Origin: an uncultured Candidatus Saccharibacteria bacterium
Lineage (GTDB): Bacteria > Patescibacteriota > Saccharimonadia > Saccharimonadales > CAIOMD01
DNA length: 25,582 nucleotides
Reading direction: 5' to 3'
NCBI GenBank assembly: GCA_964489075.1
Contig: CAZAXJ010000001.1
Span: forward strand, 1 to 25,582
In this document: piece after piece, positions 1,001 to 18,291 of the stretch
Layout: every line of letters starts with the position of its first letter
Position numbering within the stretch: the first letter of the stretch is position 1
Notes under the pieces: generated by a model
Databases searched by the model: none
Told to the model about the DNA's origin: nothing
The model's input: the letters and a program-made list of their open reading frames with translations, nothing else
Translations under genes and position numbers: made by a program

Positions 1001-2407
1001 ATGTCAGAAGTAACTAATAAACCTTCGTATATGGCAACCGCTCAAGAAGTTGCAACTATCTTTAATGTTCGCATAACTCAAGGCTTGAGTCATGAACAGG
1101 TCAAAAAAAACAAAGAAAGGGTCGATAAGAGAACATCTGTTAATTGTCCAAAACTGCCTTTTATTTTTTGGGCGATAGTATTAGTTGGCTTTAGTACATC
1201 AGTTGCAGTTTTTATTCTAAGCGAAGTAGCAGGTGTTTTGCTATTCGCTGGAGCTGCAACCCTGTTTGCTGTTTTCGGGTTGGCGCAACAAAATTATGTG
1301 AGGCATATTTTAGAAATCATTGCTAAATATCCTAAAGCTACACAAACCGTAAAACGCGATGGTGGGTCAACGTTTCAAGTTTTACCAAGCGAGTTAGTAA
1401 AAGGTGATGTAGTTATTTTGCAAAAAGGAGACTTTGTTGGTGCCGATATGAGACTGATTGAAGTTAATGACTTAGTTGTTGACGAAGAAGAAGTAACAGG
1501 TACTACGAATGCTGTTCAAAAAAATACCTTTGCAAGTACTAAAAAACAAAAACTAAAAGACCAAAAAAATATGGTTTTTGCAGGTAGCTATATTGTAGAG
1601 GGCAAGGGGGTCGCAATAGTTGTTGGGCCAATAATTCAACCTAGCAACTTTGTAAAGGTTCCAAAGCTACGTTTAAAAAAAGAGCAAAAATTCAGAAGAT
1701 TAATAGTACTGATAATTTCTGGGTTCTTGGGTGCATCTTTACTGCTATTTGATATTGGTATTTTTTCGACAGCAGCCTTAACAATATTACTTGTTGCCAG
1801 TACATATTATTATGTTACATATTGGTTAAAGGTTACTTCTTGGGCATCATTGTACGAAAAATTACTTAATATTGGCTTTCAGGCTAACTCTATCTTGGCT
1901 ATACAAAATTTAGCTAAAACAGACATCGTAATATTGAATACATCTAAATTAGAACTGCTAGAAGCAGCAGCTTTTGTTCATTCCTTGCAAGCAGAGCTTT
2001 CAATAGAAGTTAGAGGTATTACGGACACAAAGAAGGAAGTTAATGACTTAGAGCAAGAGTTGAATATTCGACAAAGTGCGTTGTCTGAAAAAGAATTTTT
2101 GAGCTCACGTCGTGATAAAAAATTAAAATCACTAAATGAATATCAATTTTTGCAAGATTTTAACGAAATTGCCATAAATGAAACATTGAGTTTACTTGGG
2201 CAGGCTGGGCATGAGGTTTTACTTATTGATGACAGAAAAATTCCAGAAGTGTCTACCAAATTAAGTAAAAGCTATTTGAACTTAACTTCTACCCCAAGCA
2301 GTGCTGCACTAAAGCAGGCAGCTGGGCTTTACAAGACACCATCATTAAAAAAAGTTGTCCAAACTTTTAACGAAATAGATCAATTTAAGAAGACAACAGG
2401 TTATTGA
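1001..2407 (+). CDS. degenerate, C-terminally truncated cation-transporting P-type ATPase-like protein
   Basis: N-terminal GLSHEQV (Cation_ATPase_N-like), actuator domain LVKGDVVILQKGDFVGADMRLIE and NMVFAGSYIVEGKGVAIVV, 4 TM segments and P-domain remnants. The DKTGT, TGES and PEGL motifs are absent and there are no M5-M10 helices. Confidence 0.75.
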   Translation: MSEVTNKPSYMATAQEVATIFNVRITQGLSHEQVKKNKERVDKRTSVNCPKLPFIFWAIVLVGFSTSVAVFILSEVAGVLLFAGAATLFAVFGLAQQNYVRHILEIIAKYPKATQTVKRDGGSTFQVLPSELVKGDVVILQKGDFVGADMRLIEVNDLVVDEEEVTGTTNAVQKNTFASTKKQKLKDQKNMVFAGSYIVEGKGVAIVVGPIIQPSNFVKVPKLRLKKEQKFRRLIVLIISGFLGASLLLFDIGIFSTAALTILLVASTYYYVTYWLKVTSWASLYEKLLNIGFQANSILAIQNLAKTDIVILNTSKLELLEAAAFVHSLQAELSIEVRGITDTKKEVNDLEQELNIRQSALSEKEFLSSRRDKKLKSLNEYQFLQDFNEIAINETLSLLGQAGHEVLLIDDRKIPEVSTKLSKSYLNLTSTPSSAALKQAAGLYKTPSLKKVVQTFNEIDQFKKTTGY

Positions 2408-2432
2408 CTTTTAAGCTAATTTTTGCTATAAT
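2404..2432 (+). promoter_or_regulatory. sigma70-type promoter
   Basis: TTGACT (2404-2409), 17 nt spacer, TATAAT (2427-2432), with extended -10 TG at 2424-2425. Confidence 0.8.
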
Positions 2433-2468
2433 ATATATGTTGATTGCAACAACAAAAATGTAAAAAAA

Positions 2469-2639
2469 TCGGTAAAAAGTAACCTGTTATTTGGTTGCCA
2501 AAAATACAATAGTACTTATGCCAAAAAAGGTGTACTATCTGTGTAAGGCTACAAAAACCAAAACATAAAAACAGGTTACTTGGCCGAACAAAAAAGCTAC
2601 GAACTTCTTTGCTATTAGTGTAGTAAGGCAAGTTTTGGC
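2469..2639 (+). ncRNA. candidate structured RNA / 5' leader (long rod plus second hairpin)
   Basis: Nested helices found by hand: 2469-73/2583-87; perfect 12 bp AAGTAACCTGTT 2477-88 / AACAGGTTACTT 2570-81; 2490-96/2556-62; 2497-99/2547-49; 2505-08/2542-45; 2509-15/2532-38. A second hairpin spans 2596-2639. No family recognised. Confidence 0.5.
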
Positions 2640-2666
2640 AAAAAAACAAAAACATGGAGGTAACCC

Positions 2667-2747
2667 ATGAGCGACGTAGCATTATCCTACGAACTCATGC
2701 CTACAAGCGACGAGCGACTGCTTAGCATCGATCAACTTCTTGCTTAG
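2667..2747 (+). CDS. 26 aa small ORF MSDVALSYELMPTSDERLLSIDQLLA
   Basis: GGAGGT Shine-Dalgarno at 2656-2661, ATG at 2667, TAG at 2745-2747. It lies between a near-consensus promoter and a terminator. Confidence 0.55.
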   Translation: MSDVALSYELMPTSDERLLSIDQLLA

Positions 2748-2752
2748 GAGGC

Positions 2753-2786
2753 AAAAAAATCCCGAACAATTAAGTTCGGGATTTTT
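2753..2786. terminator. bidirectional intrinsic terminator
   Basis: AAAAATCCCGAAC (2755-67), AATTAA loop, GTTCGGGATTTTT (2774-86). T-tracts on both strands. It sits between the tRNA-Met 3' end and the sORF stop. Confidence 0.85.
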
Positions 2787-2788
2787 CT

Positions 2789-2865
2789 TGGTAGCGGCGA
2801 CTGGAATTGAACCAGTGACCTTAGGCTTATGAGTCCTACGCTCTAACCAACTGAGCTACGCCGCC
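2789..2865 (-). tRNA. tRNA-Met (anticodon CAT), probably elongator
   Basis: GGCGGCG TA GCTC..GAGC, anticodon arm TAGGA-CTCATAA-GCCTA, T-arm ACTGG-TTCAATT-CCAGT, CGCCGCT-A-CCA; 77 nt with encoded CCA. It has no initiator features and lacks the C4:G69/C5:G68 pairs of E. coli-type Ile2. Confidence 0.92.
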
Positions 2866-9221: not shown

Positions 9222-9893
9222 ATGGAAGATTTAGAAGCTTTGATAAAAAACTATACGCCTTCAGAAGAAGTTGTAGATCAACTTGGTAAGTTGACTTTGA
9301 TTATGACCGTAGGCCCTAGTGGCGCCGGAAAAACAACATTGATGAGGCAAAGCTCAATTCCACTGGTGCTTGGCGACACTACTCGAAATAAACGAGCAGA
9401 AGAAATTAGCGGTATTGACTACAATTTTATTAAAAAAGATAATCAGCTTTTAAACGACATAAAAAATGGTAGATTTGCTCAAATAGCTATGTCGCCAACA
9501 GGCGATATTTACGCAACACGAGCAAGCAGTTACCCAAAAGAGGGGTTGGCTACATTTGCAGTACTCGCAAGCGTAATAGATATTTTTAGAAACTTAGGTT
9601 TTAAAGATACAAAAAGTATATTTGTTGTCCCTCCAAATTTTGATGTATGGCAAAAAAGAGTTAGTTCTCATAACTTGAGCTCTGATCAAAAAAAGAAACG
9701 TTCTAAAGAAGCTTGTTATTCGCTTGAAACATCACTTAACGATGAAGAAATGGTTTTTTTACTGAATGATGATTTATCGGTAGCCGAGGAAGAATTTAAT
9801 AGATTTTCTTATGAAGATGAAGTTCCAGCATCAGACAAAAAGGCACGAAAAATTGCATATCGTCTGCTCGAAATTCTCAGTAATCCGGTATAG
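9222..9893 (+). CDS. guanylate-kinase-like P-loop protein (paralog 1)
   Basis: GPSGAGKT, DTTRNKRAEEISGIDYNF, IFVVPPNF. Confidence 0.75.
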   Translation: MEDLEALIKNYTPSEEVVDQLGKLTLIMTVGPSGAGKTTLMRQSSIPLVLGDTTRNKRAEEISGIDYNFIKKDNQLLNDIKNGRFAQIAMSPTGDIYATRASSYPKEGLATFAVLASVIDIFRNLGFKDTKSIFVVPPNFDVWQKRVSSHNLSSDQKKKRSKEACYSLETSLNDEEMVFLLNDDLSVAEEEFNRFSYEDEVPASDKKARKIAYRLLEILSNPV

Positions 9894-9901
9894 TATATCT
9901 T

Positions 9902-10642
9902 ATGTTTGATCCTGAAGCACCCTTAAAACATCTCAGCGAATTCCAAAGAATTTTGAAAAATTATCGTCCCAGTTTAGAAATTTTAGATCTACTACAAACT
10001 ACACGTTTTATACTTTTGGCTGCACCGACTGCCGCTGGTCGAAACACGATAATTAAAAATCTTATTATGACCGGAAAATACTTTTATGTAGTTTCTGACA
10101 CTACTAGACATCCACGAATAAATAATGGAGTACCAGAAAGAAGTGGGGAAGAGTATTGGTTTAAAAGCGAAGATGAATTTTTACAAGGTTTAAAAAATGG
10201 TGCTTACATCGAAGCTGCCGTAATACATAATCAGCAAGTCTCGGGGATAAGTCTTACCGAAATGCGCCGAGCGGCTAATTCGAGCAAAATTGCAATTACT
10301 GATATTGATATCCATGGTTGCGATACGGTAATGAGCTACAGTGATACTAGTACCCCAGTATTTGTACTTCCGCCAAAATTTGATGAGTGGATGAGACGTT
10401 TGGATGGCCGTGGTGCAATGGATCCGGCAGAAAAAAGGCGGAGACTTATAAGTGCGGCAGAAGAAATCCAGCTTGCACTCGACAGGTCTTACTTTAAATT
10501 TATTATCAACTGGGATTTACGATTAACGGTAGAAGAACTCCACCAGCACATTACGAGTGGGAGTTTTGGTGCAGCTGAACAACAAGCAGCTCACAACCAT
10601 GCTCAGCAGCTTCTTTCCGATCTTGATAATTTTGTTAATTAG
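9902..10642 (+). CDS. guanylate-kinase-like protein (paralog 2, variant Walker A)
   Basis: APTAAGRNT, VSDTTRHPR..ERSGEEYWF, YIEAA, VFVLPPKF. Confidence 0.75.
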   Translation: MFDPEAPLKHLSEFQRILKNYRPSLEILDLLQTTRFILLAAPTAAGRNTIIKNLIMTGKYFYVVSDTTRHPRINNGVPERSGEEYWFKSEDEFLQGLKNGAYIEAAVIHNQQVSGISLTEMRRAANSSKIAITDIDIHGCDTVMSYSDTSTPVFVLPPKFDEWMRRLDGRGAMDPAEKRRRLISAAEEIQLALDRSYFKFIINWDLRLTVEELHQHITSGSFGAAEQQAAHNHAQQLLSDLDNFVN

Positions 10643-13820: not shown

Positions 13821-14918
13821 GTGGCTAAACGGGATTATTACGAAGTATTAGGCGTTGGTAAAAACGCATCGGCGGATGAAATTAAAAAAGCGTTCCGCCG
13901 CTTAGCCGTACAACATCACCCAGATAAAGAAGGTGGCGACGAAGCCAAATTTAAAGAAGTTAATGAAGCTTACGAAGTTTTAAAAGATAGCGAAAAACGT
14001 CAGCGTTATGATCAGTTTGGTCACGCCGGTGTTGGTGGTGCATCGGGTGGAGGAACCGGCGGTAGCCCATTTGAAGGATTTAATTTTAACAGCCAAAATA
14101 TCAACTTTGATTTTGGCGACATGGGCGACATTTTTGGATCATTTTTTGGTGGCGGGGGTAGTCGACAGCAAGCAAGGCGCGGCCGTGATATCGAAACCGT
14201 AATTGATCTAAACTTTGAAGAAGCAGTTTTTGGTGTAGAAAAATCACTGAAGCTTAATCTAGAAGCCGAATGTGAACATTGCAAGGGCAATGGTGCAGAA
14301 CCGGGTTATGAACTTAAAACTTGCTCAACCTGTAAAGGTAGCGGCCAAGTTGTTAAAGTTATGCGAACCATTTTAGGCAACATTCAACAAGCTGCCACCT
14401 GTCACGACTGTAACGGAACAGGTAAAAAGCCAGAAAAGGCTTGCAGTGTTTGTGGTGGCAAAGGTGTTAAAAAGAAAGAACAAACAATTGATTTAAAAAT
14501 CCCCGCCGGTATTGATGATGGCGCAACTATAAGATTGCGCGAATACGGCGAAGCAGTTCAAGGTGGCAGTAAGGGCGATTTGTATGTTCACATTCGTGTT
14601 AAAGCTCATAAAAAATTCACGCGTGAAGGCGACTTAATTTTAAGCCACGAACAGGTTGATATGGTAACCGCAACACTTGGTGGCGAAATAGAAGTTGAAA
14701 CCGTAGACGGTAAAATAACAATGAAGGTACCAGCAGGTACCCAAAGTGGCAGCGACTTTAAGCTGTCAAATCACGGCGTAAAACACCCCAAAGGCGATAG
14801 CCGAGGGGCACACATTGTAACAATCGATGTACAAACTCCAACAAAGTTAAGTAAAAAGCAAAAAGAACTGTTAGAAGAATTTCAAAAACAATCAGGTAAA
14901 AAATCCTTCTTTAACTAA
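13821..14918 (+). CDS. dnaJ: chaperone DnaJ
   Basis: J-domain with HPD, G/F region, four CxxCxGxG repeats; GTG start after AAGGAG. Confidence 0.98.
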
Positions 14919-14936
14919 AGTGTTACAATAGTTGCA

Positions 14937-16337
14937 GTGGGAACTGTTTTAGAAAAAGCAAATAATAAGCAAATAAATTCTATAGACGAGGCGCTGCGTA
15001 TTGCAGCGCTTTGTAATGTATCTGACTATACTTTTTTCGAAGGGAGCCACCAAAAACGTGCCCAAGAACGTGACCATTTTTTATCCGGAAAGAAGTATGT
15101 TCCTGAATATGATTATCCACGATTGTTCGAACTAGATAAGTTGATAAATAATGAAAAACAACTCATAAAATCGTTAGAAATCATTAGCGATAATATTGAA
15201 CTTATTGGTTGGGATAAAGCTGAACTTTATCTTGCGTCAATAATTATGAATTTAAAAAGATCACAGCTTGTTATGGCCGCAGCCGAAATGAATGCAGCCG
15301 AGGTAGGGAGTCCTTGGAGGGATAGTGCACTTAAAAAATTCAAAGAACTTAATAGTGAATTATACGGCGATATTAATAAAAGCTATTTTTTCGGAATTTT
15401 AAATACAGAGTTGGAAATCGTAAAGAATTACAGACCAAAAAATCACAGAGAAACAGAAATCGTTGAATTTTTAAAACACGAACTAAGATTTATAAAAAAG
15501 GGTTACAAAGAGCACGCGATAATTACTGAAAGTGACAAAGACAAGTATTTAAAAAATATTAATGAACTTTATGGATCAATTTTAAATGTTGTTCCTGAAG
15601 GCAAAAAATTTAATGCAATTCAATGCGCAGAGATTATGAACAAAACTTTGGTTTTTGCGGGATTTTCTGAAGATTGGAAGGTGGTAATTGATTCCAAAAA
15701 GTCGTCACCATCAACGCTTGGTTCAAAAAAAAGAATCTATTTACCAAAAGATACACAGCGCACAAGTGACCAAATTAAAGGCCTAATATTGCATGAACAA
15801 GAAGTACACGCCAGAAGATATTTCAATGGGGTTCAGTTTCCAGAACTGTCGCTACTTGCAACAGGTACGGCTGAGTATCTACCAGTAGAAGAAGGCTTGG
15901 GAACCATAATGGCGCTTTTGGCAGCCCCAAACGAAACAAGCCCTTTAGAACGTGCAAGACAACGCTATATACACATCGGTTTAGCATTGGGAGTTGATGG
16001 CTACAAGAGGGACGCTCGTCAAGTATTCGAGATTACATGGAGACTGCACGTGCTCAATACTTGCCATCATAAAGAGATAACTAAAAACGATGAAAGCCAA
16101 TCAAAAAAGGATGTTTATTCGCATATCGAAAATATTTTTAGAGGCACAGATTGCTTTACTCCAGGTATCGTATACACCAAAGCAAAAGTTTATTACGAAG
16201 GTCTTGTAAAAAATTCTAAATATCTAGCGCAAATAAAAGATGACAAGGCTGCGTTTATAAGAATGTTTCTTGGCAAATATAACCATACTGATACTACCGA
16301 AACAAAGAGAATTATGCGTATAATTGGAGCAAGATGA
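14937..16337 (+). CDS. DUF1704 / MATCAP-like (QEGLA-type) zinc metallo-carboxypeptidase
   Basis: HEQEVH (HExxxH) followed by RYFNG, then EEGLG, IFRGT..PG.VYTKAKVYYEG and FLGKY. Confidence 0.8.
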   Translation: MGTVLEKANNKQINSIDEALRIAALCNVSDYTFFEGSHQKRAQERDHFLSGKKYVPEYDYPRLFELDKLINNEKQLIKSLEIISDNIELIGWDKAELYLASIIMNLKRSQLVMAAAEMNAAEVGSPWRDSALKKFKELNSELYGDINKSYFFGILNTELEIVKNYRPKNHRETEIVEFLKHELRFIKKGYKEHAIITESDKDKYLKNINELYGSILNVVPEGKKFNAIQCAEIMNKTLVFAGFSEDWKVVIDSKKSSPSTLGSKKRIYLPKDTQRTSDQIKGLILHEQEVHARRYFNGVQFPELSLLATGTAEYLPVEEGLGTIMALLAAPNETSPLERARQRYIHIGLALGVDGYKRDARQVFEITWRLHVLNTCHHKEITKNDESQSKKDVYSHIENIFRGTDCFTPGIVYTKAKVYYEGLVKNSKYLAQIKDDKAAFIRMFLGKYNHTDTTETKRIMRIIGAR

Positions 16338-16444
16338 AAAATACAAATCAAAATGGTTTTATTACGATGATAGTTATGATTCTGGCGATACTTGTTGTTA
16401 CGATAGTTTTTGTTTTTATGAGGGTTGTTAAGGCGAACCAGTAA
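16334..16444 (+). CDS. 36 aa prepilin-like small membrane peptide MKNTNQNG-FITMIVMILAILVVTIVFVFMRVVKANQ
   Basis: ATGA overlap with the DUF1704 stop, GGAG at 16326-29, TAA at 16442-44. Class III signal-like QNG|F followed by a 21-residue hydrophobic helix. Below the ORF-track length cutoff. Confidence 0.7.
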   Translation: MKNTNQNGFITMIVMILAILVVTIVFVFMRVVKANQ

Positions 16445-16500
16445 TATTGTAAAATAATAATATTTATGTTATAATAATTTGATTTGTTAATAATTTTAAA

Positions 16501-16902
16501 ATGAAGCATATTATTGGTAAGTTTGAAAAAGTAAGTTTCCCTGAATTTGGGATTAATAACGTGGTGGCAAAAATTGATACGGGTGCTTACAGTGGAGCGC
16601 TCCATTGTACAAAAATTAAAGAACTCAAAACGAACAAAGGCATGGTGCTTCAATTTTCGCCGTTCGATCATCCAGAGGTAGAAATTAAAACTAGCCAATA
16701 TGAGGTTGGTGGAGTGCGAAGCTCAAACGGAATTTCTGAACATCGATATTATATAAAAACTACAATCAGAATTGGAACACATCAGTATCCAATCACAATT
16801 ACACTGTCAAACAGAAGTAGTATGCGATACCCCGTGCTTCTAGGTAGAAAGTTTTTAATGCAAAGTAATTTTTTGGTTGACGTGGGTCAGGATAATCGAT
16901 AA
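16501..16902 (+). CDS. RimK-associated retropepsin-like aspartic protease (RimB-like; often labelled ATP-dependent zinc protease)
   Basis: AKIDTGAYSGALH, VRSSNG.SEHRYYI, LSNRSSMRYPVLLGRKFL; lies directly upstream of rimK. Confidence 0.88.
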   Translation: MKHIIGKFEKVSFPEFGINNVVAKIDTGAYSGALHCTKIKELKTNKGMVLQFSPFDHPEVEIKTSQYEVGGVRSSNGISEHRYYIKTTIRIGTHQYPITITLSNRSSMRYPVLLGRKFLMQSNFLVDVGQDNR

Positions 16903-16922
16903 GGTTCGAACAAGGAATACTC

Positions 16923-17825
16923 ATGAAAATAGCTATTCTTTCTAACGGCCCGGGCAACTATTCAACAAAACGACTGGCTGAAGAAGCGACTAGTCGCGGA
17001 CATGAAGTTAGTGTTATTAATTATGCAAAATGCTACATAACTGCAGAAAGTGCAAAACCTCGCGTTCGTTATGAGGGCAAAGATATTTCAAATTTCGATG
17101 CAATTATTCCCAGAATAGCCAACAGCTATACCAAATATGGTTCTTCAATTGTTAGGCAATTTGAAATGATGGGTGTCTATACGACGACTAAATCCATCGC
17201 TCTAGTTCGCTCAAGAGACAAGCTTCGTTCGATGCAAATTATGGCAAGATATGGTGTGGGAATACCAAATACAGTTTTCAGTAGGGAAACTGCGGAGATT
17301 GATGATGTACTAGAGCAAGTCGGCGGAACCCCTGTAATTATAAAAGTAGCTCGCGGAACACATGGTAACGGTGTCGTACTAGCCGAAACAAAAAAAGCGG
17401 CAAAAGCGGTAATGCAAGCATTTTATGTCGAAGGTGTTAATTTTTTGGTTCAAGAGTTTGTAGCTGAAAGTGCTGGTACCGATATTCGTGCTTTCGTTGT
17501 TGGTAATCGCGTTGTAGCAAGTATGCAAAGACAAAGTCTCGATGACGATTTTCGCTCAAACTTACATCAAGGTGGAAAAGGAACGATAGTTAAACTTACC
17601 GATATCGAAAAGAAAACCGCTCTTAAAGCGGCAAAAGCGATGGGTTTGCAAATATGCGGTGTAGATATGATGAGAAGTGATAGGGGTCCACTGGTTTTAG
17701 AAGTTAATGCGAGCCCAGGTTTTAGCATAGAAAAAGTAACTAATCGGAATGTAGCTGCAAAAATAATTGAATATATAGAACAAAATGCAAAACAAAGAAA
17801 CCGCAAAGATCGCGTTGGCGCGTAG
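16923..17825 (+). CDS. rimK: RimK family ATP-grasp alpha-L-glutamate ligase
   Basis: DAIIPRI, SRDKLRSMQ, PVIIKVARGTHGNGVVLAE, LVQEFV, DIRAFVVG, FRSNLHQGG, GVDMM, LEVNASPG; AAGGA SD. Confidence 0.95.
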   Translation: MKIAILSNGPGNYSTKRLAEEATSRGHEVSVINYAKCYITAESAKPRVRYEGKDISNFDAIIPRIANSYTKYGSSIVRQFEMMGVYTTTKSIALVRSRDKLRSMQIMARYGVGIPNTVFSRETAEIDDVLEQVGGTPVIIKVARGTHGNGVVLAETKKAAKAVMQAFYVEGVNFLVQEFVAESAGTDIRAFVVGNRVVASMQRQSLDDDFRSNLHQGGKGTIVKLTDIEKKTALKAAKAMGLQICGVDMMRSDRGPLVLEVNASPGFSIEKVTNRNVAAKIIEYIEQNAKQRNRKDRVGA

Positions 17826-18273
17826 CAAAGAAGGATTAATAGTTCAGCTATCTATAGTTGCTATAATAGTTATTTTTTTAAGTATTGTTGTACTTTGGCT
17901 TTATAGTATTTTGCAAGAAAATCCCAAAACAATAACCGTTGGTAAAGAATCGTTTACTGTTGAAGTTGCGGATACTGAAGCTGAACGCGAAAAAGGATTG
18001 GGGGAACGTGATGGTTTGGGGCAAAATACTGGTATGCTTTTTGATTTTAAAGAAAACAAAAAATGGAAAATTTGGATGCTCAACATGAGATTCCCTATAG
18101 ATATTATTTGGTTGGATGCAAATGGAAAAATTGTACATATAAAAAAGAATGCAACACCAGACAGCTTTCCCAATGTTTTTATTCCTGAAACCCCAGCAAC
18201 TTATGTTGTTGAACTCAATTCTGGCGCAATAGACAAAACAGGAGTTAAATTAGGCGATTCAGTTCGCCTTTAA
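17785..18273 (+). CDS. DUF192 family protein with N-terminal membrane anchor
   Basis: EVADTEAEREKGL, GMLFDF, WMLNMRFPIDIIWLD, YVVELNSG. The start is uncertain (41 nt overlap with rimK). Confidence 0.88.
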   Translation: MQNKETAKIALARSKEGLIVQLSIVAIIVIFLSIVVLWLYSILQENPKTITVGKESFTVEVADTEAEREKGLGERDGLGQNTGMLFDFKENKKWKIWMLNMRFPIDIIWLDANGKIVHIKKNATPDSFPNVFIPETPATYVVELNSGAIDKTGVKLGDSVRL

Positions 18274-18291
18274 AGATGTTATGCTTATCAT

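Follow-up and report, generated by a model that had tools for sequence, protein, structure and literature searches.

A conserved microprotein mRNA of Saccharimonadales in which the ribosome-binding site and a post-stop sequence are predicted to compete for one segment of the reading frame

The analyzed window, 25,582 nt of an uncultured Candidatus Saccharibacteria bacterium, contains a region that conservation across Saccharimonadales marks as a stand-alone monocistronic mRNA of ~345 nt, predicted to encode a conserved microprotein. Codons 10 to 13 of its short open reading frame (sORF), with the core CCU, are predicted to pair either with the Shine-Dalgarno (SD) sequence in the nascent RNA or with an AGG behind the stop codon. 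The two pairings are mutually exclusive since both use the same CCU. A three-way competition for this core is the most likely gate on translation across the family, a reading from folding prediction and genome comparison to which we give about as much credence as doubt. Once ~35 nt of the sORF is transcribed, the core would pair back onto the SD, and in this genome also onto the AUG, damping cotranscriptional initiation. The post-stop AGG, GUAGG in most relatives, would take the core as soon as it is transcribed and free the SD. Translation would then be damped during transcription and again after 3' trimming, and it would be biased toward, or licensed in, complete transcripts with an intact 3' end; the block could also re-form where ribosomes melt the 3' helix. 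No ligand is implied. If this switch between the ORF and the 3' untranslated region is real, translation is licensed by sequence downstream of a stop codon. The two folds and the order of their appearance are predicted; sequence, conservation, codon fixation, and covariation are observed.

This family-level switch is better supported than the leader switch proposed in the initial annotation of this DNA. The idea of mutually exclusive pairings around the ribosome-binding site (RBS) holds, with the difference that the partner is the ORF segment 2694-2702 and its rival the post-stop sequence 2749-53, not the leader. The features of the unit are as follows.

2404..2432, forward strand: sigma-70-type promoter, TTGACT-17-TATAAT with a TG extension, 11/12 consensus
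2439..2450, forward strand: 5' mini-hairpin, identical in G002 (a syntenic genome of the same genus) and a homologue of the 5' palindrome that occurs across the order
2469..2587, forward strand: long rod, -39.9 kcal/mol, z -6.2, a genus-level insertion
2596..2639, forward strand: hairpin 3, -16.5 kcal/mol, specific to this genome; most of TTTTGGCAA, the segment of pairing (iii) described below, lies in its 3' arm
2653..2669, forward strand: predicted hairpin (i) over the SD (GGAGG, 2656-60) and AUG, which excludes the SD:ORF helix
2667..2747, forward strand: sORF of 26 codons for an acidic protein with a C-terminal helix, conserved and single-copy in Saccharimonadales
2694..2702, forward strand: ORF-internal anti-start/anti-SD segment, core CCU at 2700-02, whose predicted partners in the nascent RNA are 2666-71 and 2658-60
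2749..2753, forward strand: post-stop AGGCA, predicted to capture UGCCU (2698-2702) in the complete RNA; GUAGG in relatives
2755..2786, forward strand: strong stem-loop with an A tract before and a U tract after it, recognized by fold and sequence and absent from a simple terminator scan
2789..2865, reverse strand: tRNA-Met(CAU), convergent with the sORF here and co-directional in most family members

The source genome (G000) comprises 677 kb at 96% completeness, and the window is its contig C1; named records with the same gene are Candidatus Saccharibacteria. The sORF unit is flanked by a half-length P-type-ATPase-like gene (1001-2407) on one side and by tRNA-Met, tilS, and ftsH on the other. 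The ATPase-like ORF, on the forward strand, has an E1-E2 actuator as its sole domain match and stands upstream of the sORF in 22/23 family loci. The putative transcription start site is at ~2439, and the leader is 228 nt long. The stem-loop at 2755-86 is probably an intrinsic terminator, acting bidirectionally. The whole unit of promoter, leader, ORF, and terminator-like hairpin folds much better than shuffled sequences (z -8.2), and an equally strong promoter is found upstream of the gene in 119 homologous loci. A search of the region against Rfam returns no match at the gathering score and nothing credible up to an E value of 10, only tRNAs.

The tRNA-Met together with its promoter (2789-2935) is inverted compared to G002 and most family members and faces the sORF terminator. 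Its orientation varies across the order, and a tRNA-Met(CAU) follows the gene within 500 nt in 66/131 loci. An antisense ORF of 88 codons (2416-2682, reverse strand) runs across the leader, where G002 has an open stretch of 66 codons; no promoter was found for it, and it probably reflects the A-rich composition of the plus strand. Further along the window, two tandem guanylate-kinase-family genes and then hrcA occupy 9222-10642 on the forward strand. On contig C3 of the same genome, rpoC (14747-18278) is split into two reading frames of 479 and 764 amino acids, with its end on another contig, which is a frameshift or an assembly error.

A peptide profile search detects the gene in 22/23 family genomes and in 217/401 genomes of the order (including the unpublished G349, which enters no other result), nearly always in one copy. 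Its retention in more than half of the searched Saccharimonadales genomes despite strong genome reduction points to a core function. The gene was not found in ~285 other Patescibacteria searched, nor the peptide in seven near-complete genomes of family f64, where loss or divergence is possible. The locus is missing from G001, of the same genus as the source genome, in which the contig of the upstream ATPase gene ends at this place (an assembly gap), so that this absence carries no information. A contig labeled Chitinophagaceae carries the locus as well (L061); it groups with genus g12 at full support and is probably mis-binned.

The protein-coding nature of the sORF follows from its synonymous variation, including the use of both serine codon boxes (TCN and AGY) for Ser7. 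Homologues are 24 to 37 amino acids long, and 113/131 are net acidic, with a median net charge of -4. A membrane segment, scored as a 19-residue hydropathy of at least 1.6, is present in 0/131 members (best, 0.97; median, 0.31). In the AlphaFold model (pLDDT 84), the N-terminal half is extended and a helix follows at the C terminus. The peptide family of 89 sequences has no match in Pfam, NCBIfam, or PDB sequences, Foldseek is likewise empty, and matches in the ESM Atlas are unnamed clusters only. A search of 1.84 billion proteins yields 193 matches, nearly all of them short stand-alone proteins, and a metagenome scan with the genus peptide finds only two distant loci. Domain libraries have overlooked this gene of 24 to 37 amino acids with its near-consensus promoter, and no description of it was found in a literature search that left out most subscription papers. 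The transcriptome preprint on TM7x reports no validated small RNAs in that organism (10.1101/2022.03.25.485537).

Our leading but tentative guess is that the peptide serves a larger housekeeping protein as a soluble acidic ligand. For a resemblance to the omega subunit of RNA polymerase, there is no PF01192 match and no sequence match to solved omega chains; the predicted complex of the peptide with beta-prime residues 385-1270 scores 0.00, which speaks neither for nor against it. PF01192 itself does not exceed its cutoff in 151 genomes of the order and 151 Patescibacteria genomes of the phylum, with 14/14 controls positive; omega in these Patescibacteria is either lost or too divergent. At 22 loci of other families, e.g., L179, a gene for an RRM-type RNA-binding protein, assigned as such from its sequence, diverges from the sORF promoter. 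At L080, L091, L141, L153, L155, L156, L160, L172, and L174, an SD and a gene beginning with MLIQD come immediately after the sORF, which suggests an operon rather than a stand-alone transcript in several families.

Within the family, the codons of the pairing segment are nearly fixed. The Pro12 codon is CCT in 22/22 members, compared to 10/91 outside the family and 27 to 29% in the genome and flanking genes, and codon 11 ends in CT in 19/22 family genomes. TAGG after the stop occurs in 21/23 family members versus 15/108 elsewhere. The duplex of the core with the 3' element has a median energy of -9.2 kcal/mol in the family and -3.5 kcal/mol outside; for the core with the SD, the medians are -7.7 and -3.4 kcal/mol. 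The 3' helix is kept with other letters in genus g1 (UGCCU:AGGCA) and, in shifted form, in G011 (CUCCU:AGGAG). When RNAs are cut at the stop codon, the core pairs upstream of the AUG in 22/22 family members, with probabilities of 0.62 to 1.0. The family median of the SD opening energy is 5.8 kcal/mol in nascent RNAs, compared to 3.05 kcal/mol after synonymous recoding and 2.95 kcal/mol at full length, and nascent RNAs lie above their own recoded mean in 20/22 genomes. Forty loci of other families show no excess of SD occlusion over recoded ORFs (1.9 versus 2.45).

Pair 6 of the SD:ORF helix changes on both sides. It is U-A in eight genomes, with a Thr codon, and A-U in seven, with a Ser codon; the exceptions are one U-U and four C-A (Fisher p 0.0014 for the double-sided change, uncorrected for kinship). 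Codon 11 encodes Met in G000 and Leu in G002, which places both outside the Thr/Ser comparison. A tree of the neighboring ATPase, built without G006, gives the Ser/A state at least two origins, one in genus g12 and one in G004 beside G009. SD:ORF helices of 8 to 9 bp are found in G004, G005, G006, G007, and G012. In the full-length ensemble, from which pseudoknots are excluded by the model, roughly half of the family still has the core on the SD. Most relatives carry GUAGG in the loop of a short post-stop hairpin, so that the released state would be a pseudoknot, which ViennaRNA is unable to score. RNAalifold on the MAFFT alignment of the family returns no consensus structure, with the SD and 3' motifs out of register.

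By the same modeling, the family switch appears blunted in the genome under study. In RNA prefixes ending at 2705-2747, positions 2666-71 pair with 2694-99 and AGG (2658-60) pairs with CCU (2700-02), with probabilities of 0.62 to 0.71. On the appearance of 2749-53, the SD:ORF pairing falls to 0.14, the core shifts to the new partner (0.78), and hairpin (i) takes the SD (0.77). Because the hairpin takes the SD in the released state, opening the SD costs about the same in both states (3.5 versus 3.4 kcal/mol). With the SD occluded to about the same degree in either state, this genome resembles a weakened version of the family design, and it is the outlier in the recoding test (z -2.2).

Hairpin (i) was described in the initial annotation as a fold of the SD and start codon, and it is built as stated there, of CATGG/CCATG at 2653-2669 plus G2659-C2664 closing a GUAA (GNRA) loop. 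It does fold (-5.0 kcal/mol; probability of 0.73 to 0.76 in the full RNA), but it is confined to this genome: its local energy is -6.1 kcal/mol here, 20 of 21 relatives reach -1.2 kcal/mol at best, and the counterpart in G002 has +1.7 kcal/mol and a probability of 0.0. Before the post-stop sequence exists, its probability is 0.12 to 0.25. On these models, the hairpin is one arm of a real exclusive pair whose other arm is the ORF and not the rod, and it would act as a modest static damper in this genome. The hairpin shows no thermometer behavior, with predicted probabilities of 0.78 at 10°C, 0.73 at 37°C, and 0.68 at 55°C and a nearly flat course from 10 to 65°C. An RNA thermometer is rejected, as hairpin (i) shows no predicted melting over the physiological range.

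Leaders of the gene are mostly short and A-rich (median, 55 nt); wherever a promoter could be scored in family members of other genera, they measure ~45 to 60 nt. Across the order, they reach at least 100 nt in 17/119 loci, with component hairpins that are unrelated between lineages. The long leader of this genome is, as modeled, a statically folded genus-specific insertion of rod and hairpin 3 with no partner exchange with the RBS. Two genomes only, G000 and G002, carry the rod. The rod of G002 shows the same architecture (z -2.4) and an invariant GGUUGCC/GGCUAC core; this core, GGUUGCC/GGCUACAAAAACC, is shared by both genomes, and the flanks differ. Beyond G002, two short matches (22 to 26 nt) are all that 400 genomes of the order contain, and the rod pattern has 0 matches in metagenome and viral contigs and none in phage records. 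A miniature inverted-repeat element is ruled out, as the rod is not multicopy (one copy in its own genome). Contigs from two other studies match 2484-2563 with three differences in 80 positions (weak, depth of 2.5 to 3). The A run at 2640-2646 is one A shorter in contigs from two other studies, which is strain variation or a homopolymer error and leaves the analysis unaffected.

Structured, mutually unrelated leader inserts of 100 to 315 nt are found at L079, L111, L147, and L177, at L108 and L109, at L089, at L095 and L149, and at L153. They occupy the same leader position in several families, some are conserved within a family, and those of L111, L147, and L177 have a three-way junction in common. 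Sixteen long-leader loci searched against Rfam give tRNAs only, with no insert matched. At the very start of the transcript (the first 20 nt), 75/119 loci contain a perfect palindrome of 6 to 12 nt, compared to 27% in shuffles. Its four central bases vary by lineage (TGCA, CATG, TCGA, GATC, CTAG, CGCG, and AGCT) and are always self-complementary. As a simple hairpin loop does not need a self-complementary center, RNA dimerization or a palindrome at the DNA level may be indicated.

The initial annotation had further proposed that a rod strand, 2574-81, alternatively covers the SD by pairing with 2658-65 (ii) and that 2633-41 pairs with 2495-2503 (iii), with a recurrence at 2519-26 (iii-b), so that alternative leader folds gate translation. 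All strings and coordinates of these pairings are correct: (ii) consists of seven Watson-Crick pairs and one G-U, (iii) consists of nine Watson-Crick pairs, and TGCCAAAA does occur a second time at 2519-26. The rod holds 2495-2503, 2519-26, and 2574-81, and (ii) arises from a near-palindrome, GGTNACC, present in both the rod arm and the SD region. Forcing (ii), (iii), or (iii-b) raises the minimum free energy from -107.2 kcal/mol to -93.4, -90.7, or -86.2 kcal/mol, at costs of 13.8, 16.5, and 21.0 kcal/mol. Their ensemble probabilities at 37°C are 1e-9, 2e-10, and 4e-13, respectively; they stay below 1e-3 at 75°C and at or below 1.3e-8 in every transcription prefix, and the rod pairs that (ii) and (iii) would displace have a probability of 0.97. 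Dinucleotide shuffles produce a helix of at least 8 bp with at most one G-U between the leader and the RBS window in 8.7% of cases, a 9-bp Watson-Crick helix between rod and hairpin 3 in 5.6%, and any such 9-bp helix in the leader in 18%. G002 has neither hairpin 3 nor TTTTGGCA, and its outer rod arm is changed. Folding thus yields one dominant leader fold, and comparison finds the alternative pairings absent in G002 and leaders of ~45 to 60 nt in family members of other genera with scorable promoters; a single dominant fold and unconserved alternatives are two of the outcomes that the initial annotation named as refuting its idea. Gating through (ii) or (iii) fails on energy, chance (6 to 18% of shuffles), and conservation. 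The proposed leader switch is mostly chance complementarity and, as written, a false riboswitch candidate.

The strongest competitor of the gating model is a static structure in which pairing of the core with the post-stop sequence, together with a local GAG:CUC hairpin, stabilizes the mRNA or slows the ribosome; it is possible, though we consider it clearly less likely. A similarly restrained probability applies to the remainder of that account, which treats the SD pairing as a by-product and the leader hairpins as stabilizing elements or neutral expansions. Pairs 0 to 2 of the core:3' helix are kept in 23/23 members and pairs 3 and 4 in 20 to 21/23, and Glu9 is GAG in 21/22 members against a background of 23 to 30%, which SD pairing leaves unexplained. 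The unrelated large leader hairpins in 17/119 loci are what tolerated insertions would look like. The 3' element is moreover SD-like, so that sequences selected to pair with it partly pair with the SD by default, and the GAG:CUC hairpin could account for the extra CU. At pair 6, four genomes mismatch, A is common in these spacers, and kin are not independent. A static structure, however, leaves unexplained the covariation between SD spacer and codon 11 (U-A in eight genomes, A-U in seven, at least two origins), the 8- to 9-bp SD:ORF helices in five genomes, and the excess of SD occlusion over recoded ORFs. Somewhat above the static structure in our estimate, and still tentative, stands a completeness switch free of ligand and processing, in which the ORF blocks the SD until an SD-like decoy appears behind the stop, often in a pseudoknot loop. 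Two further parts of this proposal call for the same reserve, namely, that the switch turns the design of type I toxin mRNAs around and belongs to a hitherto undescribed microprotein gene of the whole order, and that large RNA domains, unrelated to one another, entered the leader on several occasions.

The remaining explanations have less in their favor. It is unlikely that the genus-specific rod regulates the sORF as a ligand- or protein-binding module, through something other than the pairings of the initial annotation. Its architecture and core are kept between G000 and G002 while the flanks differ, the weak contig matches to 2484-2563 extend to two other studies, and long-leader homologues have a higher median RBS opening cost (9.6 versus 6.5 kcal/mol, uncorrected for GC content or kinship), but there is no Rfam match, no predicted link between rod and RBS, and no third carrier genome, and the inserts of other lineages show no sequence relationship. 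Very improbable is the model of the initial annotation, with (ii) or (iii) gating the SD as a riboswitch platform or thermometer. In its favor are the complementarities themselves and the possibility, in principle, that binding of a protein would cover the energetic penalty; against it stand a cost of +13.8 to +21 kcal/mol, negligible probabilities in all prefixes, no temperature transition, a chance rate of 6 to 18%, and partners absent in G002. We rate as equally improbable a type I toxin-antitoxin system with a toxic peptide kept in check by the folding of its mRNA. The peptide length of ~26 to 30 amino acids and the anti-SD placed within the ORF, at an invariant Ser/Thr-Pro pair of codons, recall aapA3 (PMC6733600), and SD sequestration by the ORF is predicted in 22/22 nascent family RNAs, with covariation. 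The hydrophobic toxin of that class is missing, with no membrane segment in any of 131 members and most of them net acidic, and membership is rejected on this ground together with the antisense scan and the predicted role of the 3' end. No minus-strand promoter for a cis-antisense RNA was found in the window, and a consensus scan of the family gives weak, unconserved matches in 2/22. The gene is also single-copy and chromosomal, lies beside tRNA-Met in half of the loci (66/131), and has a 3' end predicted to free the SD, not to block it.

Two other classes were considered and rejected. A riboswitch is contradicted by the absence of a known-class aptamer and by the cost of the alternative aptamer-RBS fold (+13.8 to +21 kcal/mol). 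A tmRNA, with a tag ORF ending in LLA, or a permuted or second one, has neither an RF00023 match nor a tRNA-like domain in the window, and the ORF has its own SD and AUG; the tmRNA of this genome lies on contig C24.

Translational riboswitches and RNA thermometers have a structured 5' leader and a hairpin over the SD and AUG. The unit described here shares both features, and it differs in having no Rfam aptamer, no isoenergetic alternative fold, no physiological melting, and a leader that is unconserved beyond the genus. The dual-function small RNAs RNAIII, SR1, and SgrS are stand-alone structured transcripts with a short ORF, a strong promoter, and a terminator, as is this unit; here, the conserved part is the ORF and not the noncoding part. 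In timP/TimR, no processing is needed: the sequestered SD is liberated by a long-range interaction that includes a pseudoknot, and all elements named in the abstract involve the 5' untranslated region, with a toxin under small RNA control as the product (PMC13000454). The two systems are alike in activation by refolding alone, which is predicted here, and differ in that the blocker of the present unit lies in the ORF and the releaser past the stop codon.

The closest counterpart is aapA3/IsoA3 from Helicobacter pylori, whose ORF of ~30 codons contains an anti-SD at a conserved Ser codon, 27 nt downstream of the start. Hairpins that sequester the SD and exclude one another act there during transcription, and a 3' element decides the final fold. 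In its full-length form, the RNA is kept inert by a 3' anti-SD, and trimming of the 3' end activates it; the product is a membrane toxin, and an antisense RNA is present (PMC6733600). The unit of Saccharimonadales likewise combines a short ORF containing an anti-SD with exclusive SD-sequestering folds and a 3' element setting the final fold. In contrast to aapA3, this element is SD-like and would, by prediction, set the real SD free; the peptide is acidic and nonmembrane, and an antisense promoter was not found. The predicted exclusive pairing resembles the aSD2 hairpin of AapA3, with its logic inverted.
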